From NCBI RefSeq assembly GCF_002075285.3, contig NZ_CP021983.2:4350001-4382000 (forward strand): a DNA stretch of 32,000 bases. Direction: 5' to 3'. Origin of the DNA: Halomicronema hongdechloris C2206 (GTDB lineage Bacteria; Cyanobacteriota; Cyanobacteriia; Phormidesmidales; Phormidesmidaceae). Numbering within the stretch: the first letter of the stretch is position 1; every line of letters begins with the position of its first letter. A program made the position numbers and the translations under genes. The notes beneath the pieces are model-generated. The model made no database searches and was not told the DNA's origin. It was given only the letters and a program-made list of their open reading frames with translations. This document shows positions 8,075 to 26,374 of the stretch, in pieces.

Positions 8075-8247
8075 TAAGCGCTCAGAGGATATACCAACGC
8101 CTCGTACCAGTTCTCGCGGGTAATGCTAGCAATGGCTTGCCGAGGAGCGAGGGAATTGAAGGGGCAGAACGTGTTACTGCCATTTAGAGCATGGATCAGT
8201 ATGAATATTAGCTACTCCCAACCCGTAACGTAGCCAGGGAGAGGCAA

Positions 8248-8273
8248 CACGCTAGGGGGATTGCCCTAGCGTG
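8248..8273. terminator. perfect 10-bp stem / 6-nt loop hairpin between convergent genes (possible bidirectional terminator; no U-tract)
   Basis: CACGCTAGGG-ggattg-CCCTAGCGTG, abutting the stop codon (8274-8276) of the minus-strand gene and 174 nt downstream of the methyltransferase stop. Neither side has a T-run, so it is not a canonical intrinsic terminator. Confidence 0.35.
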
Positions 8274-8765: not shown

Positions 8766-8914
8766 GGCATCAGTAAATACGTACTAAATTAGTGTATCCC
8801 ACAGAGCATCTGGCCAGGCCCTCTGTGGAGACCTCGAGAACAATGAATTTTTGTAAAGAGGGGCCTGTCTGTGTCTCTGGCGACCGACGACAGCTTTGGG
8901 ATTTGAGATGGTCA

Positions 8915-9352
8915 ATGACTGTGAGAGTTAAGGGTAGTAACGTGACGATTGCAAAACGGGTCGGATGGAGTTGTGTAACCGCAGGCATGATCTTGGCATC
9001 AGCCTTGCCAGCACTGGCAGCTAGGCTGGCCTTTATAGGTAAGGTCATGGTAGACGAGCAAGTTGATCGACCCTTGCCTGGTGTACGGGTGCACATCGAG
9101 TTCCACGGTCACGAAGTCGGGATTCATGAGTACACCACGACCCGCTCTACCCGAGTGACGACGGATGAAAACGGTAATTTTGCCGTTGCCCTGAAGATGT
9201 CGGAATATCGTTACCACTGGACCCATGCCACCGTCGAGATTCCGGCGACGGAGCAGAGCAAAGCCATGGTACGGGTAATTCCAGTGGAAAATGACGGTCA
9301 AGGCGGTTGCGTGGGCTTCAAGCAGATCGAAGTGCCTCCCCTGCAGCCGTAA
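8915..9352 (+). CDS. small secreted protein, possibly with a carboxypeptidase-regulatory-like beta-sandwich
   Basis: The frame of ORF 8792-9352 contains a signal-peptide-like segment KRVGWSCVTAGMILASALPALAA, followed by GKVMVDEQVDRPLPGVRVHI...TTDENGNFAVAL. Candidate starts are ATG 8915 and GTG 8942. Two minus-strand ORFs (8770-9096 and 8999-9379) overlap it, so the strand choice is not certain. Confidence 0.5.
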   Translation: MTVRVKGSNVTIAKRVGWSCVTAGMILASALPALAARLAFIGKVMVDEQVDRPLPGVRVHIEFHGHEVGIHEYTTTRSTRVTTDENGNFAVALKMSEYRYHWTHATVEIPATEQSKAMVRVIPVENDGQGGCVGFKQIEVPPLQP

Positions 9353-9391
9353 TCGGGGGCAAAGAATTAAACGGACCACGCTGTGAGCTCA

Positions 9392-9443
9392 ATCTAGAGA
9401 AGAGCCAGTCATTCTATATCTAGAGAAGAGCTAATTATTCTAT
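9392..9443. repeat. imperfect tandem duplication, 2 x 26 bp (23/26 identical)
   Basis: ATCTAGAGAAGAGCCAGTCATTCTAT (9392-9417) is followed directly by ATCTAGAGAAGAGCTAATTATTCTAT (9418-9443), at the left edge of the compositional shift. Confidence 0.85.
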
Positions 9444-10184
9444 CAAATCCAACACAATCAGCTAAGAGGATATTTGGAAAGTACCCTGCAACCTTGCTCC
9501 AGACTGGATTCTGGCCAACAGAGCCATACGCTCTAAAACGCTTACCCTGCAGGGCTTTCAGCCGAGTTTTCAAATGTCCTCTAAAGGTGTGTCGCTGTGC
9601 CGTTATTACGTCAGTGCACTCGGACCGACACCTTAATAGCGGCACAGTGTTTGCCCATCACCAGGTATCAACTCTTCAAGGGGTGATGCGATTACGCGTC
9701 CCGCCGATTATGGGCATCGTGAGGCAACTCTCAGAGCAAGTGCGCCTGAAGATGAGTCATCACACCGATGGCCTCATCCTCTCTAAGTAACCTGAAGCCT
9801 CAACACGCCTAAACAGCCGTCTCTATGTCGACCATGGCGAGGGTTGGCCCATTGATTGCACAGGTCAACCAACGTTCATCAGTCAACCAACTGCACGTCT
9901 ACCTGTGCCAGCTTGCCAACCAGATTGAGTAGCTTTTTCACCTTTTACAGAAAATAAGCCTTAGAAACTACATAAAAGGACTGATTCTATACAAAGATTT
10001 GATGAAACCCTAGGTAGACCTCTCATCTGCAAGAATCCACATGATAGAGTTTTTGAGTCATCTTGATTGGGTTGAGTCTCTTAAATCTTCACTAGTCTGC
10101 AACGGCTTTTTAAAGAATACATTTTTCTCGATTAGCCGAAATTTAAATGCTTCAAACTAGCTTGATATCGTTTTTCACCTAGTA

Positions 10185-11282
10185 ATGGTATTTGTAAAGA
10201 TTAATACTGACAGACCAGCTTGGAGTCGCGTCATGAAAACCGTTAATCATACATCAAAGGAAGTATCTCAATCTCATTCTAAAGGCATATCTTATGAAGA
10301 TATGGAGCATGGAAAATATTCGGATGTAGCGCCTTATGACTTGTCACTGGTCATCCCTATTTACAATGAAATAGATAGCATTCCAAAATTGCTTCAACGC
10401 ATCACGACAGTTTTCGAAAAAAGCCGATTAAGTTATGAAATCATCTGCGTTGACGATGGCTCAGTGGACGGCTCAGCCAGCTTTTTGATTGAGCAAGCAA
10501 AAGTACGCTCAGATTTACGCGTCATAGCCTTACGCCGAAACTATGGTCAGACTCCAGCAATGGCCGCTGGATTTGAACATGCTAGAGGGAGAGCAATCGT
10601 AACCTTAGATGGTGATTTACAAAATGACCCTGCCGACATACCGACTTTGCTATCAAAGTTGAGCGAAGGCTATGACCTGGTATCAGGTTGGCGAAAGAAT
10701 CGCCAAGATGCAGCATTGACGCGGTTATTGCCCTCTAAGATCGCAAATTGGTTAATTGGGCGCATAACAGGAGTTAAATTGCATGATTATGGATGTTCTC
10801 TGAAAGTATATCGCTCAGAACTGATTGCTGACATAAGATTATATGGTGAAATGCATCGTTTCTTGCCAGCCATAGCCTTTACGGAAGGGGCTCGAATTGC
10901 CGAAGTACCAGTCCGCCATCATGCTCGCAAATTTGGTCACAGTAAGTATGGATTAGGACGAACACTGCGAGTTCTGGCAGATTTACTGACTGTCAGCTTC
11001 ATGCAAACCTTCCTAACGAAACCAATGCACGCTTTTGGATTCGCCGGCCTTTTTTCAATCTTTTTGGGAGTTATTCTGGCAAGTTACTTAGCTTTCTTGA
11101 AAATATTTTTGGACCAAGGAATCGGCGATCGCCCTCTACTTTTATTAGCTGTGGTGCTATTTTTGGCAGGCATACAAATGTTCAGTTTCGGCCTACTAGC
11201 AGATTTACTGATGCGCACTTATCATGAATCTCAGAATAGGCCAGTTTATCGTATACGGCAGTTGGCAGGCTTTCGAAAGTAA
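10185..11282 (+). CDS. GT2 polyprenol-monophosphate glycosyltransferase (DPM1 / GtrB / ArnC-like) with two C-terminal TM helices
   Basis: GT-A motifs are present: LSLVIPIYNE, YEIICVDDGSVDGS, RRNYGQTPAMAAGFEHARG, TLDGDLQNDPADIP and VSGWRKNRQD. The C-terminus has hydrophobic helices FGFAGLFSIFLGVILASYLAFL and LLLLAVVLFLAGIQMFSFGLLADLL, then RTYHESQNRPVYRIR. The true start may be an internal Met (10233 or 10302). Confidence 0.9.
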   Translation: MVFVKINTDRPAWSRVMKTVNHTSKEVSQSHSKGISYEDMEHGKYSDVAPYDLSLVIPIYNEIDSIPKLLQRITTVFEKSRLSYEIICVDDGSVDGSASFLIEQAKVRSDLRVIALRRNYGQTPAMAAGFEHARGRAIVTLDGDLQNDPADIPTLLSKLSEGYDLVSGWRKNRQDAALTRLLPSKIANWLIGRITGVKLHDYGCSLKVYRSELIADIRLYGEMHRFLPAIAFTEGARIAEVPVRHHARKFGHSKYGLGRTLRVLADLLTVSFMQTFLTKPMHAFGFAGLFSIFLGVILASYLAFLKIFLDQGIGDRPLLLLAVVLFLAGIQMFSFGLLADLLMRTYHESQNRPVYRIRQLAGFRK

Positions 11283-11822
11283 AGTCTATGGTCAAACCTC
11301 CATTTCTATGCCAGGCCGACCATCTCGATGTACTTGATTCTGGTCGAGCGCCTCGATGCCAGCAGCAAGCGCCCCCATCGTCCACTCTGGCTCATGGCTA
11401 TCGGCGAAGACCTGCCCCCGTTAGAGGTACTCTGGCAACTCTACTTGTGGCGCTTCTGTGTTGACCATTGGTATCGCTTCATCAAGCAGTGTCTCCATTG
11501 GCCGCATCTGGCCACCGCCGAACAAAGTGAGCGTTGGAGTCACCTGATGCCGCTGATGACTTGGCAACTCTGGTTGGCTTGCCAGCAGGGTGCTCAGCAC
11601 TGTCTTCCTTGGCAGAAACTTATGACACAACCTGCCCCAGGACGAGTAGCCAATGGCTTCGCGGCGATTTTAGTCGCAGTTGGTACACCCGCCTCATCCC
11701 CCAAACCTAGAGGAAAATCTCCTGGTTGGCCAACGGGGCAGCAGCGCGCGCTAAGACCCCGCTTTCCCTCCGTCCGAAAGCGCTATTCCAAGCCCAAGAA
11801 AACAGCTCAGAATACTGCCTGA
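11283..11822 (+). mobile_element. 5'-truncated transposase gene remnant (C-terminal ~180 codons), backbone-like GC
   Basis: The frame is open from the base after the GT2 stop codon: SLWSNLHFYARPTISMYLILVERLDASSKRPHRPLWLMAIGEDLPPLEVLWQLYLWRFCVDHWYRFIKQCLHWPHL...SPKPRGKSPGWPTGQQRALRPRFPSVRKR. This looks like the C-terminal third of cyanobacterial DDE transposases with a basic tail. No N-terminal or catalytic part is present. The family cannot be assigned by eye. Confidence 0.7.
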
Positions 11823-11978
11823 CCCTTCATCTTCATCTCAGTTCGACTGCTGCCTCGTGGCTCAAGCGATTGGGCCAACTTAGCCATGCCTGTTACTGGT
11901 TTGTCTAAACTCCAGGTCAAGGGCACTGGCCAGCTAAAGGATGATGGCTAGAATGAGTAAGCAGCCACTGTTTTAGCC

Positions 11979-12560
11979 ATGCCTTGTCCCCACTGCCAAA
12001 GCGAATCCGTTGTCAAAAACGGGACTCGTCGCCTTCAAGACAACCGTCCGCCAGTGCAACCGAAGTTCCAATGAGCGTACAGGCACACCTATGGCCCGCT
12101 TACGGACCCCCTCCAGCATGGTTCACTTCAGTCCTGAATATCGGGCAGCTCTGGATGTTTGCCGTCAGAGCGTATTAGAGCAAACCATTGTGGAGATTCC
12201 GCCGTTGAGCTCTCGAGTGATTCGCTTACGTACGTATCGCAATCAGTGTGAGGCCCGTCAACAGCCAGTACGTTCTCAGCATCCGTTGCAAGTGTCCACC
12301 GCCGGAGGCGCAACGGGAACCCAACTGGGGTCGCGTGCGGTCAGTTTGGCAAGTTATCTGAATAAGCACCTAGAGCTGCCTGTGCGCCAGACCTGCGACG
12401 TCCTCCATCAAACGGTGGGCCTAACGGTCAGTCCGGGGGGGATATACCAGGAAATAGCCCGTGCTGCGTTACTGTTTAGCCTAGATTCCAGGAAGCCTTT
12501 CTTGGCTACGGGTGCTCTTTGCTACTTTCAAAATATCCTCTCAGGTACTGGCGCATCGCT
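11979..12560 (+). mobile_element. degenerate, frameshifted transposase remnant(s): IS1/IS1595-type N-terminal zinc ribbon followed by an IS66-like central segment
   Basis: ATG 11979 encodes MPCPHCQSESVVKNGTRRLQDNRPPVQPKFQ* (31 aa). It continues in another frame as ...RQCNRSSNERTGTPMARLRTPSSMV..., then ...IPPLSSRVIRLRTYRNQCEARQQPV...QLGSRAVSLASYLNKHLELPVRQTCDVLHQTVGLTVSPGGIYQEIARAA (ORF 12010-12696). The frames are broken, no complete transposase is present, and the block is GC-rich. Confidence 0.5.
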
Positions 12561-12628
12561 GCGCCTACCTCAACGGTATGATTGGCTTAAAAAGATGACA
12601 TGCTCCCATATTATATTTCTTATTGTCG

Positions 12629-14170
12629 TCATTCATCTTCGTTGGATGAAATGGTGTCGTAGCCAGGTTCAAATAGGAACACATGAATGCCTTTAGTAAA
12701 TTTTCGGTAGTTCCTTTTATAGAGTTTGTTAGAGGAAAAAATCTGTTCCAAGCTTTCAATAGAGGGTTGATCACGGCAATACCTGAAGCAAATTATCCAG
12801 AGACGCTTACTTGCAGAAATAATCTCATGAATAGTTGATGTATTATCAGAGCCTTCTAACTCTTTCTTAAGAGCTATGTGCTGCTGATCATTTGTTTTAG
12901 AATTCTCTAAATAGACACTGTTAATCAGGAAATGAAAGGGAATCGTTCTATCATGGTAGTGGGCTATGGCCGGCAGAACTTTCTCAACATTTGTATATAG
13001 TATAAAAGCATCGTTAGCTTGCTTATTTGTCTTAATGAACTGTATTGCTCCACGCCAATCCTCATGATTAGGCAGACTATAATAGTAGTATAAGCCTCCG
13101 CCCACGCCCAAAGTATAAATTACTACAATTACAGATGCAATGATAGCCTGGAAGTGCCAGACCCGAATAAAACTTGCTGCTAAAAGTATGAAAACATAAG
13201 GACAAACTAATAGAAGATATCGATCGAGCCAAATGGAACTCGATATGTAAGAAATAAACAAGATTGAGGCGGACGGTAAAACTGCCCATGCCGTAACCCA
13301 ATTAAGATTTTGTGAACGATGCTTTAGCAATAAGGCAAATGGAAGTAAGAAAGTCGCTAAAATAGTACATATCTTATAAAAGTAATTTAATGGCTCAGAA
13401 AGTGCTGACGAATAAGGTGGATGAAAAAGGAATTCTTTTAGGATGATTAAGATCTCTTTTAGTCCTGGCTTCATTCTTGTAACTACGCCAGAGGAAGCCA
13501 TAAAGTCTGGCCCACTTTTAGTTAGTAGTGTAAATGCCGCCGGAGCACAGATTAATCCTGTAATCACTAGTCCTTCAATAAAAGATAGAAGTTTGCGCCC
13601 CTGTTTATGAAACTGACACCAGATAATCGTAGCATCTGGCAATAGGAGTACCACATTCAACGGTGTAGTCAGTATTGCTAAAGCTCGCAGGATGGCCCAT
13701 GAATAAAGAAAGAGCCGTTGCGGACATTGAAGAGCATATGTCAGTACAAGTGTCCCAAACAGATTCAAGAAAACACTTAAGGAGTAAAATCTTACCTCTT
13801 GGACATGATTAATAAACAGAGGCGAGAGAGCGAGAAGAAGCGCTGCTACTAAGCCAACAGATCTATTAACTAAGCGTTGACCAATCAAATAAGTTATGAG
13901 AATGCTACCTAGGCCGAAAGGGATGGATAATCCCCGCAGCCATACTTCGCTTTCACCAAATACCATCCAAACTTTTAGAAGTGCGTAGTAGAGTGGCTTC
14001 ACATGATACAAAATTCGGGGTATCTCTAGGTTTATGTTTTGAGCATCATGTATGCTATAAAGTTCGTCTACCCATAAGCTTTCGGATCCTAGTTTGTAAA
14101 GATAGAGTGCGCAAGAAATTAGCAAAATAAATGTTAGGGGAAATAGTTCCTTTATTTCTTTCCTAATCAT
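12629..14170 (-). CDS. GT-C fold membrane glycosyltransferase (ArnT / PMT_2, GT39/GT83-like) with a C-terminal soluble domain
   Basis: The 513 aa product has the first-loop acidic motif SLWVDELYS after TM1, followed by about 10 or more hydrophobic segments and a soluble C-terminal tail of roughly 130 aa. It is convergent with the GT2 gene. Confidence 0.85.
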   Translation of the reverse strand: MIRKEIKELFPLTFILLISCALYLYKLGSESLWVDELYSIHDAQNINLEIPRILYHVKPLYYALLKVWMVFGESEVWLRGLSIPFGLGSILITYLIGQRLVNRSVGLVAALLLALSPLFINHVQEVRFYSLSVFLNLFGTLVLTYALQCPQRLFLYSWAILRALAILTTPLNVVLLLPDATIIWCQFHKQGRKLLSFIEGLVITGLICAPAAFTLLTKSGPDFMASSGVVTRMKPGLKEILIILKEFLFHPPYSSALSEPLNYFYKICTILATFLLPFALLLKHRSQNLNWVTAWAVLPSASILFISYISSSIWLDRYLLLVCPYVFILLAASFIRVWHFQAIIASVIVVIYTLGVGGGLYYYYSLPNHEDWRGAIQFIKTNKQANDAFILYTNVEKVLPAIAHYHDRTIPFHFLINSVYLENSKTNDQQHIALKKELEGSDNTSTIHEIISASKRLWIICFRYCRDQPSIESLEQIFSSNKLYKRNYRKFTKGIHVFLFEPGYDTISSNEDE

Positions 14171-14315
14171 GACTTTGTACGTGGGTTTTTCTAAGATTTT
14201 CCTGATGATTTATAAAGTCTAGGAAGGGCAAGGAGTGCATCCCACTTTCGTAACCCTCATTCTAGGGCAAGCTACTAGGCACACATAAGTCCTGAAGCCC
14301 TTGCGGTTAGAGCGT

Positions 14316-14426
14316 CTCCCTCATCCCCCAACCCCTTCTCCCGCTCTGGGAGAAGGGGAGCCGGAAAGCCTTTTATGGCCTCCCCCTCGCCCATTTTTGG
14401 GAGAGGGGGACTGAGGGGGTGAGGGC
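14316..14426. repeat. GC-rich nested-palindrome element (MITE-like small dispersed repeat) in AT-rich spacer
   Basis: Inner perfect hairpin: CCCCTTCTCCC (14332-14342) / GGGAGAAGGGG (14348-14358). Second, imperfect hairpin: CCCCTCGCCCA ttttt TGGGAGAGGGG (~14383-14408). Outer arms: CCCTCATCCCCC (14318-14329) / GGGGGTGAGGG (14415-14425). It accounts for the spurious ORF 14321-14524 (…SPSPKNGRGGG…GEGVGG). Confidence 0.7.
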
Positions 14427-15476
14427 AAACTTGCAAAACTGGGATGCTCCCAAGGGCAAGTACAATATGCCGTGTTTATTCTCATCTTAAGATAAAAGAT
14501 TGGCAGCAATAGGAGATAAATCATTAAGACCTCTTGTTCTCTTGGTTAAAGTACTGCGATTCATTAACTAGTTTTGTTGATGCAATACTAGAAATCTATC
14601 CAGATAATTCTTCGGATCTTGATTTTTTTAACGAAATAGGGTGCCCGCAAGACTCTGGGGTTTGACTTAAACAAGCTGTCTGTTCTTGCCTTAACTCTCA
14701 TTTTCTTGGAGAGAGAAACTGGTCCACTTGCTCGTTCTCTCTTCCTTCAGCAGAGGATTAGGGCAAGAAGCTTTTGGGCATTAGTCTAGATATTTTGTCA
14801 GTTGATCAGGTTCCTAAGTCTTAACTTGGTCAGAACTTTGCGATCTAAGTAAAAGCACGTAGATCTTTATGCTAGAACACTATAGTCTGAACTGACTTTA
14901 CATACAGTTGCCATCAGCTGAACTTTACCGAAGCTTCAAGATTTGAAAACAATTATAAAGGTCAAGAAGTGAAGTCATGGCTTCATACAACCTTTTCCAC
15001 CTCCCTTGATTTAGGTAAATGTCTCGAGTTCCTCGGGTGTCACTATTAGGTATATCTTATATTGGGACTGAATAAATCTACAAAGTTGACTCACTCAGCC
15101 ATTCAGAGAGTGGTAATAATAGGTGTACTATTTCCCAAAAGGTAGAGGCCATTATACTTTAGAATAAATTAATTAAGCTGCTTCGTATATGAAATTTTCA
15201 CTAAAACTAGTGTCGGTACTTGCATTATCTCGACTGTGCGCGGTACTTATTACGCATATCTACTATGTTCATCGGAAAATTTTTCTTTTTTAAGAAGCTG
15301 CATCATTAAATTGATTTATTTCCTTGCTCCTTATTGGATATAAAAGTCCGGACAATTTTCTGAAAGGGCACTGAACCCCTTGATGTCTCGTTCCCATCCA
15401 CCTGGCAAAAGATAACTGAAACCCTCATTCTGTCGTTAGCTCTCAAAAACTGTCCGGAGTATTGTGGATACTAATC

Positions 15477-16037
15477 ATGAATATTCTATTTTTGTCTCCT
15501 CAGCCCTTTTATCAAGACCGAGGCACGCCAATCGCTGTGCACATGGTTCTTCAGACTTTGTCCCATCGCGGTAATCGAGTTGATGTTGTAACTTACCCAG
15601 AGGGAAGGGAAATGGTTTACGAGCATGTAAGTATTCATCGTGCACCTAAGCTTCCCTTAATTAAGGGTATCCGTCCAGGATTCTCTTGGACAAAGATTAT
15701 ATACGACTTGTTTATGCTATTTCAAGCATTTAGTCTAGTGACTAAGCAAAAATATCATCTAATTCATGCTGTTGAAGAAGCAGTATTTATAGCTCTATTA
15801 ATCAAAATTTTGTTCAAGATTCCTTATGTTTACGATATGGATTCTTCTCTTCCCCAGCAGTTGATCGAAAAATGTCCATATTTATCTATAGTTCTTCCTT
15901 TACTAAATTTTTTTGAAGGTCTTGCAGTAAAAAATGCAAAAGTGACAGTTCCTGTTTGTCTTACTCTAGCAAACAATGTTAGAGCAAAATACGGCTCCAC
16001 AAAAATTGTGCTTCTACCTGATGTTACTCTCGTATAA
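15477..16037 (+). CDS. GT4 glycosyltransferase, N-terminal (acceptor/Glyco_trans_4) half only
   Basis: MNILFLSPQPFYQDRGTPIAVHMVLQTLSHRGNRVDVVTYPEG...HAVEEAVFIAL...VPV... ends at TAA 16035-16037, at the position of the inter-domain linker. The ATG at 15477 is preferred to the TTG at 15462. Confidence 0.7.
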   Translation: MNILFLSPQPFYQDRGTPIAVHMVLQTLSHRGNRVDVVTYPEGREMVYEHVSIHRAPKLPLIKGIRPGFSWTKIIYDLFMLFQAFSLVTKQKYHLIHAVEEAVFIALLIKILFKIPYVYDMDSSLPQQLIEKCPYLSIVLPLLNFFEGLAVKNAKVTVPVCLTLANNVRAKYGSTKIVLLPDVTLV

Positions 16038-16072
16038 TTTTCAATCACTGTAAAGTCTGATAATGCTGATAT

Positions 16073-16720
16073 ATGCTAATTCCACATGCCTCTAATAATT
16101 TAAAGAAGCAGTTCTATATTAAAGGCTGCTTAGTAATGTATGTTGGGAATCTTGAAGCCTATCAAGGGATTGACTTATTGCTAGAGAGCTTTTCCCTTGT
16201 CCTTAAAGAGCTTGCTGAAGCAACTTTGGTCATCATTGGAGGTGATCCCAACCATATTCAGCGGTATCGTGGACAAGCCAAATATCTTGGTATCGAAGGC
16301 AGGGTTCATTGGTTAGGTTCAAAGCCCGTTGAAGCCCTGCCAAGCTACCTCTCGCAAGCTGACATCTTGGTTTCTCCAAGAGTCCAGGGAGTAAATACAC
16401 CAATGAAGCTTTATTCATATCTTGGTTCAGGAAAAGCAACTCTAGTGACAGATCTTCCAACCCATACTCAGCTAGTTGATGAGACCGTTGCTATGATTGC
16501 TGTACCTGAACCAAAGGCCTTTTCTAAGGGTATGCTTTCTCTGATAAGGGATGCTAATCTTAGGAGTCGTTTGGGAATAGCTGGTCAAAAGCTAATCGAA
16601 GAGAACTTTTCCCGTCAGGCTTTTTGCGATCGCTTAAACTCACTATATGATTGGCTAGAGAATGAAATCGGATATGTTTCCTCTAGAACTCGTGAAAAAT
16701 CTTCGATTTCAAATATCTAA
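16073..16720 (+). CDS. GT4 glycosyltransferase, C-terminal (donor/Glycos_transf_1) half only
   Basis: ...CLVMYVGNLEAYQGIDLLLESF...LVIIGGDP...VHWLGSKPVEALPSYLSQADILVSPRVQGVNTPMKLYSYLGSGKATLVTDLPTH... It is in a different frame from the N-half. All three frames contain stops between 16035 and 16069. Confidence 0.7.
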   Translation: MLIPHASNNLKKQFYIKGCLVMYVGNLEAYQGIDLLLESFSLVLKELAEATLVIIGGDPNHIQRYRGQAKYLGIEGRVHWLGSKPVEALPSYLSQADILVSPRVQGVNTPMKLYSYLGSGKATLVTDLPTHTQLVDETVAMIAVPEPKAFSKGMLSLIRDANLRSRLGIAGQKLIEENFSRQAFCDRLNSLYDWLENEIGYVSSRTREKSSISNI

Positions 16721-16744
16721 AAAATATCTCAGAGATTGGCTATC

Positions 16745-18460: not shown

Positions 18461-18480
18461 TTCTAAGCTGAATAAAATAA

Positions 18481-19029
18481 ATGCCTTCACCAATTGCTCA
18501 TTCAGTTGCTGGATATGTTTTGTCAGTGATCAAGTCTAGAGAAATCAATCTACTTACTTGGAAAAAAATATGGCGAACAGATACATTTTATGTGGTCTTT
18601 ATATCAAATGCACCTGACTTAGATTTCCTTATCCAGGCTTTCTCGAACGAGAAAATACATCGAGGGTTTACTCATAGTATCACAGCCGCTTTGGGAGTAA
18701 GTCTCTTTGCTGTTATTGCCAGCCATATTTTTCATAAGCTATCACACTTTAAATCCCTATTCTGGGTAACGTTGATGCTCTACAGTCTTCATTTATTTTT
18801 AGACTACTTCACGGCTGGTGGCCCGGGTATGCAATTGCTTTGGCCTTTCACCAATGAATTTTATCGCTCCTCAGTTTCCTTATTTCCTGGAGTACATCAT
18901 TCCCGCGGAGTTTTAGACTGGAGCCATATCCAATTCGTTAGCTATGAATTGATATTCTCAGGATTACTGATATGGGGCTTAAAACATTGGAAATCTTATA
19001 GAAAAGATAGTAAAAAGTCATTAACTTGA
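18481..19029 (+). CDS. membrane-bound metal-dependent hydrolase, YdjM-like (PF04307-type)
   Basis: The 182 aa product begins MPSPIAHSVAGYVL, and has APDLDFL, HRGFTHSI and 4-5 hydrophobic helices. It starts 20 nt after the upstream stop. Confidence 0.7.
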   Translation: MPSPIAHSVAGYVLSVIKSREINLLTWKKIWRTDTFYVVFISNAPDLDFLIQAFSNEKIHRGFTHSITAALGVSLFAVIASHIFHKLSHFKSLFWVTLMLYSLHLFLDYFTAGGPGMQLLWPFTNEFYRSSVSLFPGVHHSRGVLDWSHIQFVSYELIFSGLLIWGLKHWKSYRKDSKKSLT

Positions 19030-19083
19030 TTAGCTAGATATTCATATTTATAGTTGATTCTTAATATGAGGACTACTAAATAA

Positions 19084-19896
19084 ATGTCTTCTGTTGCACT
19101 TATAGATGCACATGTCCACATTCATAACTGCTTTAAACTAAGACAGTTACTAGATTCTGCTCGGGAAAACTTTTGTCGAGCTCAGCCTTTGCACCCGGAA
19201 AACTGTTTAGGAGTCTTGATTATTACGGATATCGGTCCTCGAAGTTGGTTTCAAGAACTTAGTCAAAATCTCTTTACATGTGATGCCTCGACTTCTTGTA
19301 GGGTCGGCGAACAGTGGCTCATTACAAGAACTCAAGAGTCATATTCTCTAATGGCTCAACATTGTCAAGGTCAGAAAATGATTTTGCTCTTGGGACGTCA
19401 AATTGTAACTCAGGAAGGAGTTGAGATTTTAGCTCTGATAACTGAGAATGATTTTCCAGATCATTTACCTTTAGAAATAACTGTTCAATCTATTCTGTCT
19501 GCTCAGGCTTTGCCAGTATTGCCTTGGGGAGTAGGTAAATGGATCGGACCACGGGGCTCTTATATCCAGCGTTTTTTGGACACTCACTATGCATCTCATA
19601 TCTTTTTGGGAGACAATAGTGGCCGACCGAGTTTCTGGCCTCGGCCGAGCCATTTCAAGCAAGCCGAACTAAAAGGTGTTCGTATATTGCCAGGCACAGA
19701 TCCCTTGCCTTTAGAAAATGAGTATCGCCGACCCGGTAGTTTTGGATTTAAGCTTTTATGCTCTTTAGATCAGAACTCTCCAGGAGAAGATTTAAAACGG
19801 CTATTGCTGAATCCCTCTACGGTAATTCAGCCTTACGGCGACTTAGAGAATCCACTCCGATTTCTTCGAAACCAATGGATGCTTAGATTCAAATGA
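19084..19896 (+). CDS. hypothetical protein with N-terminal HxH metal-binding motif (amidohydrolase/PHP-like?)
   Basis: The 270 aa product begins ALIDAHVHIHN at its N-terminus. Later conserved-looking patches are LPWGVGKWIGPRG, FLGDNSGRPSFW and ILPGTDPLP. I do not recognise a named family. Confidence 0.55.
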   Translation: MSSVALIDAHVHIHNCFKLRQLLDSARENFCRAQPLHPENCLGVLIITDIGPRSWFQELSQNLFTCDASTSCRVGEQWLITRTQESYSLMAQHCQGQKMILLLGRQIVTQEGVEILALITENDFPDHLPLEITVQSILSAQALPVLPWGVGKWIGPRGSYIQRFLDTHYASHIFLGDNSGRPSFWPRPSHFKQAELKGVRILPGTDPLPLENEYRRPGSFGFKLLCSLDQNSPGEDLKRLLLNPSTVIQPYGDLENPLRFLRNQWMLRFK

Positions 19897-19977
19897 CCTA
19901 AAAAACCCGCTTATTTAACCAATTTTAGTGTAAAATCCATATCTTAATAGTCTAAGTAGCCGGAGAATTTAAAATTT

Positions 19978-20964
19978 ATGGCAAAGGTTTTAGTCACAGG
20001 TGGCAAGGGATTTCTAGGTAGCCACTTGGCAGCTAAGTTAGCAAAAACAGAGGATCAAGTTCGTATTTTTTCCCGTCAAAAAGGTACGAATAGTTCAATT
20101 TTAAGAGATTCTAATTATGAATTCTCTTGGGGTGATATTAGAGATTCAAGGGCTGTTGAAAATGCAGTTGAAGGGGTTGATTACATTATTCACACAGTCT
20201 CTAATTTTCGCAAAGGAGGCTCGGATAAAGATGACGCTTACTCTACAAATGTTGAAGGCACTGAGAACATACTGAGAGCAGCAGAAAAGCATAATGTTCA
20301 ACACATAATTCACTGTAGCACGATTGGTGTGCATGGCACAGTTTTAGAAATCCCTGCAAATGAAGATACTCCATTCAATCCAACTGATCTCTATCAAGAA
20401 ACAAAGTTGATTGCAGAAAAGAAGGTTTGGGAATTCTATCAGAAAACCAAATTACCGATCACCGTCATTCGCCCTATCTCTCTCTTTGGAGCGGGCGATA
20501 TGCGGATGCTTAAGCTTTTTCGTCTGATTAAGCAGGGAAAATTTATTATCGTAGGAGATGGAGAGGTATTATTTCATCCCGCCTATATCGATGATGTAGT
20601 TCAGGGATTTCTCCTTTGCCTAGGTAATGAGAGAGCTTTTGGAGAAGCATTCATCATCGGAGGGGAAGGATATTTGACATTGAATGAACTATGTGGCCTG
20701 ATTGCAGAAGAGTTGAAGGTTCGTCCTCCAAAACTTTATGTGCCGATGGTACCAGTGCTAGCTCTGGCAACTCTCTGCGAGAAAATTTGTGTGCCTTTGG
20801 GAATTGAGCCACCCTTGCATAGACGGCGAGTCAGCTTTTTTCAAAATAATCGAGCATTTTCCATCGATAAAGCGAAACAGATTTTAGGATATCAACCCCA
20901 ATTCTCTCTGGAAGAAGGTATTCAGAAAACAATCCAATGGTATCAGGCACAAGGATGGCTATAG
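19978..20964 (+). CDS. NAD-dependent epimerase/dehydratase (extended SDR)
   Basis: The Rossmann motif is KVLVTGGKGFLGSHL and the catalytic YxxxK is LYQETKLIAE. The 328 aa length is typical of sugar-nucleotide epimerases, dehydratases and reductases. Confidence 0.9.
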   Translation: MAKVLVTGGKGFLGSHLAAKLAKTEDQVRIFSRQKGTNSSILRDSNYEFSWGDIRDSRAVENAVEGVDYIIHTVSNFRKGGSDKDDAYSTNVEGTENILRAAEKHNVQHIIHCSTIGVHGTVLEIPANEDTPFNPTDLYQETKLIAEKKVWEFYQKTKLPITVIRPISLFGAGDMRMLKLFRLIKQGKFIIVGDGEVLFHPAYIDDVVQGFLLCLGNERAFGEAFIIGGEGYLTLNELCGLIAEELKVRPPKLYVPMVPVLALATLCEKICVPLGIEPPLHRRRVSFFQNNRAFSIDKAKQILGYQPQFSLEEGIQKTIQWYQAQGWL

Positions 20965-20974
20965 GTTAGATACT

Positions 20975-21772
20975 ATGAGTAATATAGAAAATTTCTCGAC
21001 TCATGAACCATTGACTATTCAAAAGAATGAAGAGATTCAAAAAACTGCACTTCAAGCAGCATTAATTGATTCTAAAAAGTCAGCCTTACAGAAATATCAA
21101 GACTTTGCCGTTGGGTCTTCTAAGTTATCAGCGTTACTGAAATATGAAATATTAACAGGGATATTTGGACCAATTCCTGGAGCACTCGGATTGGTCTTAC
21201 GTAAACGGTTTTATAAATCTTTGTTTGGTAGTATTGGTCGAGGTGTGGTTTTTGGCAAGTCGATAACAATTCGCCATCCCCATAAGATTCACATTGGCGA
21301 AAACGTTATCATTGACGATTATGCTGTTTTGGATGCCAAAGGGACTGATAACCAAGGAATCACCATCGGTAATAATGTCATGATTGGTAGGAATTCAGTG
21401 ATTAGCTGCAAGAATGGCGATATCACGATTGGTGATAACACTAATATTGCAATGAACTGCTTTATTCAATCTGCCAAAACTGTTCATATTGGCGCAAATG
21501 TCTTGATTGCACCATACTGCTATGTGATTGGTGGTGGAGATCATGAAACAGTTAGAACTGATATTCCAATCATCGCTCAGGGGCAGATTGTGAAGGGAAT
21601 CATAATTGAAGATAACTGTTGGCTTGGCGCTGATGTAAAGGTCTTAGACGGGATCAAAATTGAACGAGATAGTATTATTGGGACGGGTGCTGTTGTCACT
21701 AAATCCCTTCCGGAATTTAATGTTGCTGTTGGTATACCTGCAAAGGTAATTAAAATTAGAAAAAACGGCTAA
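20975..21772 (+). CDS. left-handed beta-helix (hexapeptide) O-acetyltransferase, WcaF/EpsM-like, with ~70 aa N-terminal extension
   Basis: Repeated [LIV]-G-x4 turns are present: IHIGENVIIDDYAVLD, ITIGNNVMIGRNSVI, ITIGDNTNIAMNCFI, VHIGANVLIAPYCYV and IIIEDNCWLGADVKVLDGIKIERDSIIGTGAVV. Confidence 0.85.
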   Translation: MSNIENFSTHEPLTIQKNEEIQKTALQAALIDSKKSALQKYQDFAVGSSKLSALLKYEILTGIFGPIPGALGLVLRKRFYKSLFGSIGRGVVFGKSITIRHPHKIHIGENVIIDDYAVLDAKGTDNQGITIGNNVMIGRNSVISCKNGDITIGDNTNIAMNCFIQSAKTVHIGANVLIAPYCYVIGGGDHETVRTDIPIIAQGQIVKGIIIEDNCWLGADVKVLDGIKIERDSIIGTGAVVTKSLPEFNVAVGIPAKVIKIRKNG

Positions 21773-21842
21773 TTTAGCTTTTGTTCTAAATAATTGTTCG
21801 AGGTTTTTTAGGTTACTTAATTAAGTCACTATCGTTTTAATC

Positions 21843-23030
21843 ATGAAAGCAGTTTCTATACAAAATATTGAGCAGACAGATGATGTCATGGCCTCTAGAT
21901 CTCTAGACCGACATATTCATGTGATGCATATTATTGACAAGCTAAGTGTTTCTGGATCAGGAGTTCATGGAGTTGGTAGAGCAATTGAGTGGTGGATTCC
22001 CCGATTTGATTCTAATGAATTTCGATTCAGTATTTGTAGTTTACGCACGCCTGAAGCTGCTGGAAAAGTTTTTGAGGAACAGGGAATACCTCCTTTTTTC
22101 CTTGGCAGAGGGAAGTTTGATGTGAGAACCGTTTTAGATCTAGTTAAGCTGATTAAAAGAGAGAGACCACATGTTCTCCACCTGCACGGTTATGGAGCTA
22201 CAAATTTCGGACGAATTGCAAGTTTCTTGACAGGCACTCCTAATATTGTCCATGAGCACACAGTAATTGATAATCAACCGCTATATCAAACTATAGTTGA
22301 CACATTTCTATCACCGCTGACGAGTAAGGCGATTGCTATTTCTCAACCTGTATACGAATTTATGATTCGTCACCGCAAAATAGATCCAGCGAAACTAGAT
22401 GTATTCTTTTATGGCATCCCGCTTTCTGAATTTCAAGCACCTGAGCAAAGAGAAATTCAAGAAAAGAGGAGTAAATTAAATATTGACCCAGACGAACATG
22501 TTATCTGTAATGTTGGTCGCTTAGATACACAAAAGGGACAAATTTATTTGTTAAAAGCAGCAATCCTCGTTCTTAAAGAACTACCTAATACGCGATTCCT
22601 AATTGTTGGGGAGGGTCCAGATCGAGAGATGTTAGAGTCTTTCGCTAGGGAAAACGGTATTAGCGATCGTATCATTTTTACTGGATTGCGTAAAGACGTT
22701 CCTACATTACTTGCCTTATCTGATTTAGTTGCGATTCCATCTTTATGGGAAGGAGGTCCGTTAACTCTATTTGAAGCAATGAACCTTAGCAAACCAGTTA
22801 TTGGCACTCCTGCTGGAATGATGGGTGAAGTTATCAGTAATGGTAAGACAGGTTTCCAAGTTCCGTTGCGGAGCGTAGATGAATTAGCTGAGAGAATAAT
22901 TTATTTGCTCAAGAATCCAACTATAGCAAAGCGAATGGGTGGAAGGAGTTGGAAAGTTTGTCAAAATTATGATATCTCAGCATCAGTGAGACGTCTTAGT
23001 GAAATCTACAGAGAGCTCTTTAGAACTTGA
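21843..23030 (+). CDS. GT4 glycosyltransferase (intact)
   Basis: VGRLDTQKGQIYLLKAAILVLKELPNTRFLIVGEGPDRE...FTGLRKDVPTLLALSDLVAIPSLWEGGPLTLFEAMNLSKPVIGT contains the E-x7-E region. The start could be an internal Met (such as 21888). Confidence 0.9.
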   Translation: MKAVSIQNIEQTDDVMASRSLDRHIHVMHIIDKLSVSGSGVHGVGRAIEWWIPRFDSNEFRFSICSLRTPEAAGKVFEEQGIPPFFLGRGKFDVRTVLDLVKLIKRERPHVLHLHGYGATNFGRIASFLTGTPNIVHEHTVIDNQPLYQTIVDTFLSPLTSKAIAISQPVYEFMIRHRKIDPAKLDVFFYGIPLSEFQAPEQREIQEKRSKLNIDPDEHVICNVGRLDTQKGQIYLLKAAILVLKELPNTRFLIVGEGPDREMLESFARENGISDRIIFTGLRKDVPTLLALSDLVAIPSLWEGGPLTLFEAMNLSKPVIGTPAGMMGEVISNGKTGFQVPLRSVDELAERIIYLLKNPTIAKRMGGRSWKVCQNYDISASVRRLSEIYRELFRT

Positions 23031-23085
23031 GCAATTTAAGTAAGTGAACCAAATATTTACTTAGATAAATTTATTTCTAATATGT

Positions 23086-24483
23086 ATGAAAAAGCTTCTC
23101 AACCGTCTAGATTTATCATATCTATATGCTTTTATTGGAGAGGCAACTCTAGGCTTAACATTTGTTTTTTACATTCTATTAGCAAGGATATTAGGTCCTG
23201 ATCAATACGGAGTTTTCGCAGCAGCTACAGCATTGGCTGGCATCTTATCGTTTTTCATTCAATTTGGTTTGCCAGCTTTGTTGACGCGAGAAGTTGCAGC
23301 TCATCCTGATAGAGGACCTAAAGAAACATCAACATTTCTAGTTTTAGAAGGTTTGCTTTCTATCCCTGTTCTGTTACTACTACCCTTTTTAGCTGGCATA
23401 TTCAAATTTGATAGCAATGGGCTTGTCGTGTGTTACATTGTTGTGCTAGCCGAGGTATGCCGTAGTGCTAAGCAAACATTAAGGGGAGTGATTCGCGGAT
23501 TGGGGCAGTTTCGGACGGAAACAACTTCTGTAGCACTTGAGCGTTTTTTATCAGTTGCATTCGCAAGCCTTACATTATTTTGGACTGAGAATTTAATTTG
23601 GGTTGTCGGCATTTTTACGATAATACGAATCCTGGATATTATAGGATTAATTTTCTACTTATGTCGAAAAACAAAAATCTGGTCTAGGCTCAGCTTGAAG
23701 AGTTTATGGCATTCATTACGAATTTCTTATCCATTTGCTCTTTCAAGTGTTTTGTGGATTCTTTATTACCAAATCGACATATTGATGTTGAAAGGATTAG
23801 CACAAACTAGTGATGTTGGTTTTTATAATGCTGCTTATCGAATTATCGAAGTTTTTGGTTCAGTCCCTCGTGTAGTTTTTCTCGTTTCATTTACTCGCAT
23901 GGCTAGGTGTCATGAAAATCATCCAGAAAAACTATCAACTGAACTCTATAAAACAGCTTACCTGCTTCTGTTGTCGACGTTGCCACTACTTATTGTTTCT
24001 GGCTTTGGCCAACAAATTATCATAAATACTCTCTATGGTAAAGACTACTATCTTGCAGGTGCCTCATTAGCAATCTTATTGCCAAGCTTGGGGATCAAAA
24101 TGTTCGGAACTTTAGTTGAATACTTTTTACAAGCAACTCAACGAGAACACCTTCTTCCTATGCTATTGGGAGTCACTGTTGTCTTAAATACTACTTTAAA
24201 TGCTGTTCTTATACCTTACTTAGGAGCAGTTGGTGCTGCTTTAGCAACTCTATCTAGTGAAATTGTATTAGCTATCTTTGGACTTTGGATAATGGCTCGA
24301 GTCGGATTTGCTCAAGTAGGTCGAACGCTTCAAATTATTTCATTATTTAGTTTATTAGCGGCGGCCACTCCCTCTTTTCTTTTGAATGGTCTTAATCCTT
24401 TGATATGTTTGGGGATACTCTTAATGAGTATTGGCATAATTGTCTCATTTTCTGCAAAAAACTTTTGTAGAAGTTTATCATAA
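23086..24483 (+). CDS. Wzx-like oligosaccharide flippase (MOP superfamily, Polysacc_synt)
   Basis: The 465 aa product has about 12 or more hydrophobic helices. Its N-terminus (LTFVFYILLARILGPDQYGVFAAATALAGILSFFIQFGLPALLTREVA) is typical of polysaccharide flippases. Confidence 0.8.
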   Translation: MKKLLNRLDLSYLYAFIGEATLGLTFVFYILLARILGPDQYGVFAAATALAGILSFFIQFGLPALLTREVAAHPDRGPKETSTFLVLEGLLSIPVLLLLPFLAGIFKFDSNGLVVCYIVVLAEVCRSAKQTLRGVIRGLGQFRTETTSVALERFLSVAFASLTLFWTENLIWVVGIFTIIRILDIIGLIFYLCRKTKIWSRLSLKSLWHSLRISYPFALSSVLWILYYQIDILMLKGLAQTSDVGFYNAAYRIIEVFGSVPRVVFLVSFTRMARCHENHPEKLSTELYKTAYLLLLSTLPLLIVSGFGQQIIINTLYGKDYYLAGASLAILLPSLGIKMFGTLVEYFLQATQREHLLPMLLGVTVVLNTTLNAVLIPYLGAVGAALATLSSEIVLAIFGLWIMARVGFAQVGRTLQIISLFSLLAAATPSFLLNGLNPLICLGILLMSIGIIVSFSAKNFCRSLS

Positions 24484-24740
24484 CTCTAGATACTTTGATC
24501 AAACATGAATCTAATATTTCTAAATCATAATTTCATTCAATAAAAGTAACAAGGTAACTTCAACCTTTAATATATGTCGAAAAATGTTTGCATTGTATCT
24601 ATATATTCTTTAATCTTTCATAAACAAATTTTCTGAGGAGAGAAACTGAATGTTCTCATAACCTTATTAAAATACTCTAACTTTTAGTCAAACGGGCATT
24701 TTCTACAGTTTTTTTACTGTTTATCAGTTTAAGTTTGAAA

Positions 24741-26345
24741 ATGAAACGTAATCACCTAATTCATAAGACGTATCTATTTATAATTTTACTGAGTTTTTTT
24801 AATCTATCATGCACTTCCCAGCATGAGAATCAGTCCAGTAGCTATCCAGCTGTTTCAGAACCCACAGGCAATGACTTAGGCAAGCGAAATGCAATGTTGT
24901 GGGAGCATGAAGATTGGGATTTGAATAATCCTTCCTGGAAGGATAACCCGTTTGATTTAGTCGCTACAGTCAGCTTCGAACATCAAAATAGCAATGCCAG
25001 TCACACTACGGAAATGTTTTATAGAGGTGATAATACGTGGGGATTTCGCTTTACTGGAACTCATTTAGGTCAGTGGAATTTCACTACGATCAGTAATGAT
25101 CCCGATCTAAATGGTTATTACGGAAGTATTATCGTTCGACATAATTCAAACCCAAATCTTGCCGGTTTCATGACTAATATTGGTAATAAATTTGCTTTGC
25201 AAACGACTGATACCGAAACGCTTCGACCATACTTATTTAATGCCTATATGAATCAGCAAAGCTTTGAGGAAAGTGGCTTTGTTGGGAATTGGACTGATAC
25301 TCAAGATACAAGTATTTATCTGCAGGATGCAAAAGAGCACGGTTTCGACACAATTTTATTTGCCATTAACAATAGCTGGTTTGAATTTGGAAGTTCGGGA
25401 TGGGATGAACATAATAGCGTCAATCCTGACATTGAAACCTTTGAGATTCTCGAAAATCTAATCATTAATACACATCGCCAAGGCGGGCGGGTTCATTTGT
25501 GGGCTTGGGGTGATGAAGAGCGTAGATGGACACCTATTGGGGTTGGATGTAACAGGCTTACTCGCTTTCTGGAGTCTTGTGATGGTGGTATCAATGGTGA
25601 GGCAGACCGCAGGCTGCAACGCTACATTGCTGCGCGCCTAGGTCCTTTGCCAGGATGGACGATGAATTATGGCTTTGACTTACAAGAATGGGTCAGCGAA
25701 GAGCAAACAGGGCGGTGGGCTGATTACTTACGAGAGCATATGGGCTGGCCCCATTTATTATGGGCTAGAGGTCGGTTTAACTCTAACCTAAGTGTGGCTT
25801 CTTATTCTGGAATGGGTCATACTTACGAGGATGCAGTTAGCAATCTGGAAGCGGATCCCACACGGCCTCATATTTTTGAAGAGCGTGATCTTTACTTGCG
25901 CGAAGATTTTCACACCATGGATTGGACTCGCCAACACCTGTGGCGATATACCCTGGCTGGAGGACATGGCGGATTTTGGGGTGTCGGCTTGGATGATGAT
26001 GCGAAGCCATACCCAAACCCTGAACAACTACGGACGCATCAGCAATTTTGGTTAGAGGAAAAGCGGTTTCTATTTGCGATGAGACCTGCCAATAGTCTGG
26101 TGACTACAGGTGATGGATATGTTCTAAAGATACCAAGCAACGCCAATTATGTTGTCTATCAAGAAGATACAGATGTAATTCGAGTAGATTTGTCAGAGAT
26201 GCAGGGAGAGCAACTCGCGATCGCTGTGAACACGAAAAATGAATACGACGAAATCGACTTGGGGATTTTAGAGCCAGGACAACAGACTTTAGAACTACCT
26301 GAAGTTTCTGACTGGGCGATCGCCGTAGGAAAATTCAATCAATAG
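24741..26345 (+). CDS. lipoprotein with N-terminal DUF5060-like beta-sandwich and TIM-barrel glycoside-hydrolase-like domain
   Basis: The lipobox is LLSFFNLSC|TS. NPFDLVATVSFEH...EMFYRGDNTWGFRFTGTHLGQWNFTTISNDPDLNGYYGSI matches my memory of DUF5060. It is followed by ...FDTILFAINNSWFE... and HRQGGRVHLWAWGDEER. GC is intermediate and the gene holds two HIP1 sites (26217, 26316). Confidence 0.55.
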   Translation: MKRNHLIHKTYLFIILLSFFNLSCTSQHENQSSSYPAVSEPTGNDLGKRNAMLWEHEDWDLNNPSWKDNPFDLVATVSFEHQNSNASHTTEMFYRGDNTWGFRFTGTHLGQWNFTTISNDPDLNGYYGSIIVRHNSNPNLAGFMTNIGNKFALQTTDTETLRPYLFNAYMNQQSFEESGFVGNWTDTQDTSIYLQDAKEHGFDTILFAINNSWFEFGSSGWDEHNSVNPDIETFEILENLIINTHRQGGRVHLWAWGDEERRWTPIGVGCNRLTRFLESCDGGINGEADRRLQRYIAARLGPLPGWTMNYGFDLQEWVSEEQTGRWADYLREHMGWPHLLWARGRFNSNLSVASYSGMGHTYEDAVSNLEADPTRPHIFEERDLYLREDFHTMDWTRQHLWRYTLAGGHGGFWGVGLDDDAKPYPNPEQLRTHQQFWLEEKRFLFAMRPANSLVTTGDGYVLKIPSNANYVVYQEDTDVIRVDLSEMQGEQLAIAVNTKNEYDEIDLGILEPGQQTLELPEVSDWAIAVGKFNQ

Positions 26346-26374
26346 GTAAAACGCACTATTCAACCGACGCAGGG

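Follow-up and report, generated by a model that had tools for sequence, protein, structure and literature searches.

A low-GC island of putative surface-glycan genes in the chromosome of Halomicronema hongdechloris C2206, probably acquired laterally and shared with a sister species

Halomicronema hongdechloris C2206, a member of the Nodosilineales, has a chromosome assembled as a single 5.58-Mb contig, from which a stretch of 32,000 nt (NZ_CP021983.2, positions 4,350,001 to 4,382,000; hereafter the window, in whose coordinates all positions are given) was analysed. Positions 9911–26345 of this window are best read as an island of ~16.4 kb that was acquired from a cyanobacterial gene pool of low guanine-plus-cytosine (GC) content (~35–40%) and that encodes part of a cell-surface glycan pathway, a reading to which we give a probability of about three in four. 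A sister species represented in metagenomes carries nearly the same island in a divergent chromosome. Synonymous divergence (dS) between the two lineages is 0.083–0.25 in the island genes (0.46 in one of them) against 0.40–1.26 in the backbone, which argues for lateral exchange rather than vertical inheritance and shows that the island passed between H. hongdechloris and the sister species, or reached them from a common source, long after their chromosomes had diverged.

The abrupt change in composition described in the first-pass annotation, which was made from the window's letters and open reading frames (ORFs), was borne out by GC, by GC at third codon positions (GC3) and by the usage of tetranucleotides, all measured against the 14 kb of flanking sequence in the window. 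In 1-kb windows, GC is 0.55–0.62 in the flanks and 0.34–0.45 over ~9.5–25.5 kb, with a bump of 0.51–0.56 at 11–12.5 kb inside the island. In 500-nt windows, the flanks (0.583 ± 0.028, minimum 0.516, n = 27) and the island (0.397 ± 0.037, maximum 0.492, n = 29) show zero overlap (Mann–Whitney p = 1.4e-10). The tetranucleotide L1 distance is 0.63–0.68 between flank and island and 0.17–0.19 within either class, and GC3 is 0.27–0.39 in island genes against 0.55–0.67 in backbone genes. The right edge lies exactly where it had been placed, in a 29-nt gap between two convergent stop codons, and the stop codon of the terminal DUF5060 gene is the exact right end of the island. At the left edge, the 832-bp non-coding zone (9353–10184) and the 26-bp tandem duplication (9392–9443, copies 88% identical) that had been taken to mark the start are both real, but the true boundary is not at 9353 but at ~9911, where low-GC, high-identity homology to the sister species begins. 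Since synteny of the left flank with the sister species ends at 8067 and island homology starts at ~9911, the sequence in between is filler outside the island proper; the tandem duplication sits in this filler, outside the shared island, and no functional meaning was found for it.

The sister species was recognised through the 284-aa protein encoded next to the right junction, which is 100% identical to XM38_041520 of H. hongdechloris C2206 and has an 85% identical homologue in metagenomes of the Joint Genome Institute, the next matches there reaching at most 63%. In three independent metagenome assemblies, this homologue adjoins the genes for the DUF5060 protein, the Wzx flippase and the glycosyltransferase GT4b, with hisPhos, ndhM and PP2C on its other side as in the window, and GC drops from 0.55–0.60 to 0.34–0.38 at the junction. 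The remainder of the sister island was reached via the 90% cluster of the GT-C protein on a 93.8-kb contig (L112), which overlaps contig L001 by 2155 bp at 100% identity, so that the sister locus is fully tiled; the whole island was also assembled in two to three further metagenomes with 100% overlap. Window segments 9911–11448, 12614–14232 and 15462–24531 align to L112 at 93–94%, and the non-coding segment 14452–15340 aligns at 84%. On the right side, identity to the sister species is 0.91–0.97 over 22377–26376 and 0.76–0.90 beyond 26376 in 500-nt windows; 100-nt windows place the step, from 0.93–0.97 to 0.66–0.88, within 26300–26400, and across the 29-nt gap identity falls from ~95% to ~82%. 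A near-identical island (93–96%) is set in divergent cores (76–88% in the flanks). Two other searches gave no comparable copy: a homology search with the glycosyltransferase GT2 found none near sister-level identity (best non-self match 78%), and a metagenome scan with the flavoenzyme, in which homologues reached at most 63% (61–63% over partial lengths, ~49–55% at full length), missed the sister species.

Synonymous divergence was calculated after Nei and Gojobori for eleven island genes on L112 and for the DUF5060 gene on L001. It is 0.083–0.245 in ten of the eleven, with the gene for the C-terminal domain of the glycosyltransferase GT4a as the outlier (0.463); values for single genes include 0.083 for Wzx, 0.245 for GT2 and 0.165 for DUF5060, and the pooled proportion of synonymous differences (pS) of the eleven genes is 0.145. 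In the right backbone, dS is 0.40 for ndhM and 0.57, 0.74 (0.735 for the 284-aa gene) and 0.77 for the others, and in the left backbone it is 0.81, 1.10 and 1.26. The low divergence of the island does not stem from protein constraint, since the divergence of its non-coding sequence (16%) matches pS. Along the island, identity varies in patches: against a background of 94–98% it drops to 80–87% at 16202–16451, 17952–18201 and 18952–19451, a pattern that fits repeated small recombination events.

The low GC is not intrinsic to the genes. Scans with the flavoenzyme, which covered the best 80 of 426 matching GTDB species and 19 metagenome contigs, showed that a core cassette of GT4a, the flavoenzyme, a YdjM-family protein, a 270-aa protein, a short-chain dehydrogenase/reductase (SDR) and an acetyltransferase recurs in more than 60 genomes, with GT4b, Wzx, GT2, GT-C and DUF5060 as variable partners. 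The carriers are dominated by Cyanobacteria of dozens of genera (among them Coleofasciculus, Moorena, Symploca, Okeania, Dapis, Calothrix, Lyngbya and Pleurocapsales, together with Acaryochloris marina MBIC11017 and Leptolyngbya PCC 7375), and the cassette occurs also in Nitrospirales, Chloroflexi and Cytophagia. The difference in GC between cassette and flank is −0.005 ± 0.024 over 67 loci whose flanks span 5 kb or more, from hosts of 0.33–0.60 GC, whereas in the window it is −0.19, about eight standard deviations off. As the cassette matches host GC in these 67 other loci, its low GC in H. hongdechloris must have been imported. The sole other outlier is a metagenome-assembled genome (MAG) of Acaryochloris (L074, 7473–21580), in which the same gene order, including DUF5060, has a GC of 0.30–0.45 against 0.48–0.50 in the flank, a difference of −0.106.

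Alignment of the neighbourhood with relatives, a check proposed in the first-pass annotation, found the island in the sister species and none beside the 284-aa gene of five further relatives (L103, L104/L105, L106 and L115; flank protein 56–63% identical), where unrelated genes adjoin it, although synteny with these five is poor and the "empty site" is only approximate. The comparison of the region to laterally exchanged, serotype-type glycan loci is supported by the composition, by the host-GC cassettes elsewhere, by the dS step at the right boundary and by the absence from these five relatives. A relative with the same locus at the same site and of the same composition, which had been named as pointing to an old vertically inherited locus, does exist, literally so on the right side; the divergence contrast argues against such old vertical inheritance.

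Several points weigh against acquisition of a surface-glycan island as we propose it. Nothing was found in the window that would explain mobility, be it an integrase, a tRNA, repeats of att type or a transposase that is intact, and the high-identity tract stops at the right junction, with none in the right flank. The left junction of the sister island rests on the single contig L112. Beyond the sister species, the closest match to any island gene is that of GT2, at 78% identity, and no match of the remaining genes exceeds 74%; no donor was found. Three genes (for the flavoenzyme, the YdjM-family protein and the PHP-like protein) have no assignable role in glycan synthesis, and the function of the island as a whole is derived from domain homology and from searches within the window. 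Finally, two Leptolyngbyaceae (L095 and L093) carry a cassette of host GC ~7 kb from their hisPhos–284-aa gene pair, a position that may be coincidental or a relic of an older neighbourhood. The genes between that cassette and the pair in L095 (1–21374) and L093 are a herA-like gene, queA, a UPF0102 gene and dnaG. These two genomes may mark an ancestral site, but housekeeping genes intervene and closer relatives are without the cassette there.

Some of these points raise the question of whether both lineages acquired the island independently, from one unsampled donor population and at the same spot by the 284-aa gene. Such a history, which we regard as improbable, would agree with the sharp step in identity and composition at the island edge without spill-over into the flank, with the different left flanks and with the second low-GC copy of the architecture in the Acaryochloris MAG. 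However, independent insertion from a common donor needs a site-specific mechanism, and no gene or repeat for one was found; integrase, att repeats and a tRNA target are all lacking in the window. Moreover, the junction spacer is alignable between the lineages, a dispersed repeat lies outside the left end at a similar distance and in a similar orientation in both, and no close donor was found. Less probable still is an old vertical locus beside the 284-aa gene, held AT-rich by selection and evolving more slowly than the backbone. The sister species does have the same genes, right junction and GC, the split junction of GT4a is identical in both lineages, and the L095/L093 cassette lies ~7 kb from the hisPhos–284-aa gene pair; against these stand an island synonymous divergence 4–6 times under that of the backbone, with a similarly low value (16%) in non-coding 14452–15340, the adoption of host GC by the cassette in 67 other genomes and the lack of an island beside the 284-aa gene in five relatives closer than L095. 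That the island is an artefact, made by a chimeric assembly or by contaminating DNA fused to the backbone, can practically be discounted: several frameshifted left-flank genes could reflect indel errors and nothing else specific speaks for it, whereas the source contig is one piece of 5.58 Mb, three metagenomes yielded the right junction in independent assemblies and two to three more yielded the whole island, with 100% overlap.

Acquisition of the island by exchange between the two species, or from a common source, leaves the route of transfer to be considered. Replacement flexible "glycotype" islands are known from aquatic bacteria such as Alteromonas and Pelagibacterales (PMC4898812, PMC4033161, PMC11898729), and for these, flank-mediated homologous recombination has been documented (PMC4033161, PMC4898812). 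The H. hongdechloris island resembles them as a putative surface-glycan gene cluster of which near-same versions occur in divergent cores, which is mosaic inside and whose source is probably outside the genus. It differs from them in that only one version of the locus, and no alternative gene set at the site, was seen here and the left flank is not conserved between lineages, in the lack of a recombination peak or tract in the right flank, and in its unusually large GC contrast (0.40 vs 0.58). The backbone is ~18% divergent between the lineages, and the right flank lacks the stretch of high identity that flank-mediated homologous recombination would be expected to leave there. Remnants of insertion sequences (IS), which lie within the island and at its left edge and none of which is intact, hint at IS-mediated events. 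The left flank of the window (queG to a methyltransferase) is syntenic with a 154-kb sister contig (L107) up to 8067 only, beyond which L107 carries toxin–antitoxin, CHAT and Fic genes. On its left, the sister island is bordered by IS fragments, DUF2973 and an ABC transporter gene, with a GC of 0.52–0.61. As the left flanks thus differ, the left side must have been rearranged in one of the two lineages.

The IS debris of backbone-like GC noted in the first-pass annotation was confirmed by NCBIfam matches and by a GC of 0.546 in the lineage-specific segment 11449–12613, which lies between the GT2 and GT-C genes; the sister species has a different fragment at the same spot (IS5/DDE_Tnp_4). A miniature inverted-repeat transposable element (MITE)-like, palindromic insertion in the 1.3-kb intergenic region between the GT-C and GT4a genes has terminal inverted repeats and strong predicted hairpins (DNA fold −51.4 kcal/mol, z −5.7), and is absent from the sister species. 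These IS fragments and the MITE are host-derived insertions that arrived after the island versions had separated. The dispersed repeat mentioned above (~120 nt, 9462–9582) has L112 copies at 17279–17399 and 15937–15996, one of which lies outside the left end of the island at a distance and in an orientation similar to those in the window; the repeat could be what is left of a shared junction, or else the end of an IS or a substrate for recombination. Another segment of ~125 nt, upstream of GT4a (15342–15465), is 77% similar to an insert upstream of the sister GT2 gene (L112 15204–15327) and counts as a further small repeat, mobile or regulatory in nature, within the island.

The mosaic nature of the island, also proposed in the first-pass annotation, is borne out by these insertions and by best matches of its genes in different Cyanobacteria. 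GT2, whose best matches are all cyanobacterial (65–78% identity), points to Coleofasciculus/Moorena (69–70%), the flavoenzyme–YdjM–PHP genes to Dactylococcopsis (61/60/56%), the SDR and acetyltransferase genes to Pleurocapsales/Hyella/Dapis (73–74%), GT4b and Wzx to Symploca (69/62%), and DUF5060 to the Acaryochloris MAG (50%). Across genomes, the SDR and the acetyltransferase come in two allele types, 70–74% or 35–40% identical, as a surface-type locus that varies would be expected to show.

The features of the window that bear on the island are collected in Table 1. From 15462 to 26345 the genes form a single plus-strand array with short gaps, and all island genes are under purifying selection (ratio of nonsynonymous to synonymous divergence, dN/dS, 0.09–0.42). 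The gene list of the first-pass annotation stands for GT2, GT-C, SDR, acetyltransferase, GT4, Wzx and the hydrolase-like DUF5060 protein, but omitted the flavoenzyme (the largest gene), the YdjM-family protein and the 270-aa protein; likewise, its statement that every gene is glycan-related is not borne out for these three. Its remark that the window has no initiating phosphoglycosyltransferase, Wzy, Wzz, integrase, tRNA or flanking direct repeats is upheld by the searches: there was no Pfam match for the first four functions among the island ORFs, no tRNA and no Rfam match in the window, and no direct repeat of at least 25 nt flanking the island. Promoter-like and terminator-like sites showed no enrichment.

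Table 1. Positions of the island, its genes and adjoining features in the window
Feature	Position	Strand	Remarks
Lineage-specific filler, GC 0.52	8068–9910		between backbone and island
Singleton 163-aa ORF in filler	8274–8765	−	one-member protein cluster
Doubtful ORF in filler	8792–9352		
Island proper	9911–26345	+	~16.4 kb; ~93–96% nucleotide identity to sister species
GT2 polyprenyl-phosphate glycosyltransferase, ArnC/GtrB/RgtE type	10185–11282	+	PF00535, E 1.2e-27
IS fragment, C-terminal third of NF041680-family transposase	11328–11822	+	E 1.3e-48, model 281–438 of 439
IS66-family transposase fragment, in ORF 12010–12696	12178–12471	+	NF033517, E 2.7e-7, model 43–134 of 387
GT-C fold glycosyltransferase, PMT_2, ArnT/RgtD-like	12629–14170	−	PF13231, E 7e-6
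GC-rich palindromic MITE-like insertion	14233–14451		219 nt, GC 0.58; alignment gap vs L112
GT4a N-domain gene (Glyco_transf_4)	15462–16037	+	PF13439, E 1e-8; dN/dS 0.22
GT4a C-domain gene (Glycos_transf_1)	16073–16720	+	PF00534, E 6.9e-22; dN/dS 0.12
GlpD/GlpO-like FAD-dependent oxidoreductase	16736–18460	+	574 aa; PF01266, E 6e-46; PF16901, E 6.5e-18
YdjM-family inner-membrane putative metal-dependent hydrolase	18481–19029	+	PF04307, E 1.4e-18
270-aa protein, predicted PHP-like phosphoesterase fold	19084–19896	+	family unannotated; AlphaFold2 + Foldseek
SDR, nucleotide-sugar epimerase/dehydratase type	19978–20964	+	PF01370, E 1.9e-40
Hexapeptide-repeat O-acetyltransferase, WcaF/WbbJ type	20975–21772	+	PF00132, E 3.8e-19
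GT4b glycosyltransferase, intact GT-B	21843–23030	+	PF00534, E 1.1e-39; PF13439
Wzx-type MOP flippase	23086–24483	+	PF01943, E 1.8e-27
DUF5060-domain protein, putative secreted glycoside hydrolase, terminal gene	24735–26345	+	PF16586, E 1.9e-11
Right junction	26346–26374		29-nt gap, convergent stops at 26345 and 26375–26377
Backbone gene XM38_041520, 284 aa	26375–27229	−	Nodosilineales-conserved; right anchor

The left part of the island holds a pair of genes that adjoin each other in many homologous loci. GT2 (349 aa in the NCBI gene model, 365 aa as an ORF) matches ArnC (PRK10714) over its full length with E 3e-68, at 230 bits against an equivalog cut-off of 529. The GT-C protein, transcribed divergently from the main operon, passes the PMT_2 cut-off narrowly (26.8 vs 26.1 bits), is named GT39 at NCBI and RgtA/B/C/D-like in UniRef, and has best homologues in other genomes that are just 33–43% identical. 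The two thus resemble the ArnC/ArnT, GtrB/GtrC and RgtE/RgtD pairs in the full-length ArnC match of GT2 and in the PMT_2/RgtA–D-like domain of GT-C, and differ from them in that both fall under the equivalog cut-offs and no small flippase (GtrA, ArnE/F) was found beside them. At the other end of the operon, the acetyltransferase matches the NCBIfam WcaF family with E 2.3e-27, under the cut-off, and the DUF5060 protein shows a weak match to PDB 4n0r ("putative glycoside hydrolase") and an N-terminus that by eye resembles a signal peptide; its gene, with a GC3 of 0.39, is indeed the terminal gene of intermediate GC described in the first-pass annotation.

GT4a, beside the flavoenzyme, is not broken but a naturally split GT-B glycosyltransferase encoded by two genes. 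Among 91 homologous loci (L004–L102), the N- and C-domain genes are split in 48 and fused in 43, and the two-ORF junction is identical in the window and in the sister species. A frameshifted pseudogene arising from the small tandem repeat at 16057–16077 was considered and rejected in view of the same junction in the relative, the selection on both halves and the 48 split loci.

The flavoenzyme is the signature gene of the conserved cassette; in the loci scanned it always lies inside glycan clusters adjoining a GT4, not in a setting of glycerol catabolism. It shares with GlpD/GlpO the two-domain architecture (DAO + DAO_C), alignable end to end, and its nearest structures are PDB 3da1, 2qcu and 2rgh. 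Unlike these enzymes, it stays under the NCBIfam GlpD cut-off (258.6 vs 360 bits), and its family has "GLLP" (residues ~354–359) in place of the G-[LV]-R-P motif common to the four solved GlpD/GlpO enzymes, a replacement of Arg by Leu. This arginine is presumably the one that binds the substrate phosphate in GlpD, although a literature search gave no confirmation of that role. Judged by this replacement, the flavoenzyme is likely to act on a substrate other than glycerol-3-phosphate.

The 270-aa protein matched nothing in Pfam, NCBIfam or the PDB sequences, profile searches of Pfam and PDB included, and yet its family is large, with 2169 cluster representatives at the 50% level (E ≤ 1e-10). 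Its AlphaFold2 model has a predicted local distance difference test (pLDDT) score of 93.9, a single-sequence model (pLDDT 36) having been discarded, and the top Foldseek matches of this model are PHP phosphoesterases, namely 7rty (E 1.9e-6) followed by 2anu (both with a probability of 1.00 and TM scores of 0.49–0.59), with EndoQ and RNase AM also among them. Residues D8, H10 and H12 are invariant in the family, which fits the N-terminal H-x-H metal motif, and the protein is accordingly predicted to have a PHP-like metal-dependent phosphoesterase fold. As a speculation, a GT4 adjoining a phosphoesterase recalls two-step glycoside synthesis via a phosphorylated intermediate. It is conceivable, though we would not count on it, that the core cassette is an undescribed pathway which, via such an intermediate, equips a surface glycan with some unusual substituent, derived perhaps from a polyol or an acid, and that its low-GC version moves between Cyanobacteria; a literature search for the core cassette found no description of it.

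Judged by the domains it encodes, the island would build or decorate a cell-surface glycan. From what is known of their families, the GT2 and GT-C proteins may add a sugar on the outward-facing side of the membrane via polyprenyl phosphate, while the GT4s, the SDR, the O-acetyltransferase and Wzx could carry out the cytoplasmic assembly and flipping of a lipid-linked oligosaccharide, with the initiating transferase, the polymerase and the export functions presumably encoded elsewhere. After the exchange, each lineage picked up different IS fragments between the GT2 and GT-C genes, H. hongdechloris acquired the MITE as well, and one of the lineages underwent a rearrangement of the left flank. 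By analogy with other bacteria, a swap of the locus would change the surface met by phages and grazers.

With this content the island fits a well-known kind, the low-GC, laterally exchanged surface-glycan loci. The O-antigen (rfb) clusters of enterobacteria, situated between galF and gnd, are likewise low-GC and serotype-specific, and the island shares with them an operon of glycosyltransferases, sugar-modifying enzymes, an acetyltransferase and Wzx, of low GC in a higher-GC chromosome and laterally exchanged. Unlike them, it lacks Wzy, Wzz, an initiating transferase and a set of genes for nucleotide-sugar synthesis, and has in addition the GT2/GT-C pair for periplasmic glycosylation and the flavoenzyme/PHP/YdjM trio. 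Compared with Wzx/Wzy-dependent loci in general, Wzx is present, whereas Wzy, a chain-length regulator and an initiating phosphoglycosyltransferase are not among the ORFs of the window. In Prochlorococcus and Synechococcus, cell-surface islands rich in glycosyltransferases are linked to phage resistance. The island of H. hongdechloris has in common with these a cyanobacterial host, an atypical composition, glycosyltransferases and presumed surface variation, and is unlike them in that its host is a filamentous member of the Nodosilineales and that it contains a defined conserved cassette found also in Nitrospirales and Chloroflexi.

Some genes of the left flank deserve mention in their own right. 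The gene for a DUF5117/DUF4953 zinc-metalloprotease (1981–4442) consists of at least five overlapping ORFs here and is one 955-aa gene in the sister species, and a 168-aa hexapeptide-repeat gene (4439–5043) is split into two ORFs here; these broken genes are either pseudogenes or the result of assembly indel errors. The queG ORF (168–1499), with a TTG start, encodes 443 aa here against 329 aa in the sister species; its N-terminal extra part overlaps short tandem repeats (e.g., AGAGGGA × 5.6 at 1205–1243), and the ORF is probably over-extended.

The evolutionary pattern seen here is clean but expected, and does not overturn current understanding. Its interest lies in offering a clean case of the exchange of a surface-glycan island between species of filamentous Cyanobacteria, a group whose islands of this kind have received far less study than those of picocyanobacteria or enteric bacteria, and in a host that is a model organism for chlorophyll f. 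It also illustrates that vertical descent does not follow merely from a relative having the same locus at the same site and of the same composition. The widespread cassette, the PHP-like family without a Pfam model and the naturally split glycosyltransferase are useful leads, the latter two meriting biochemical study.

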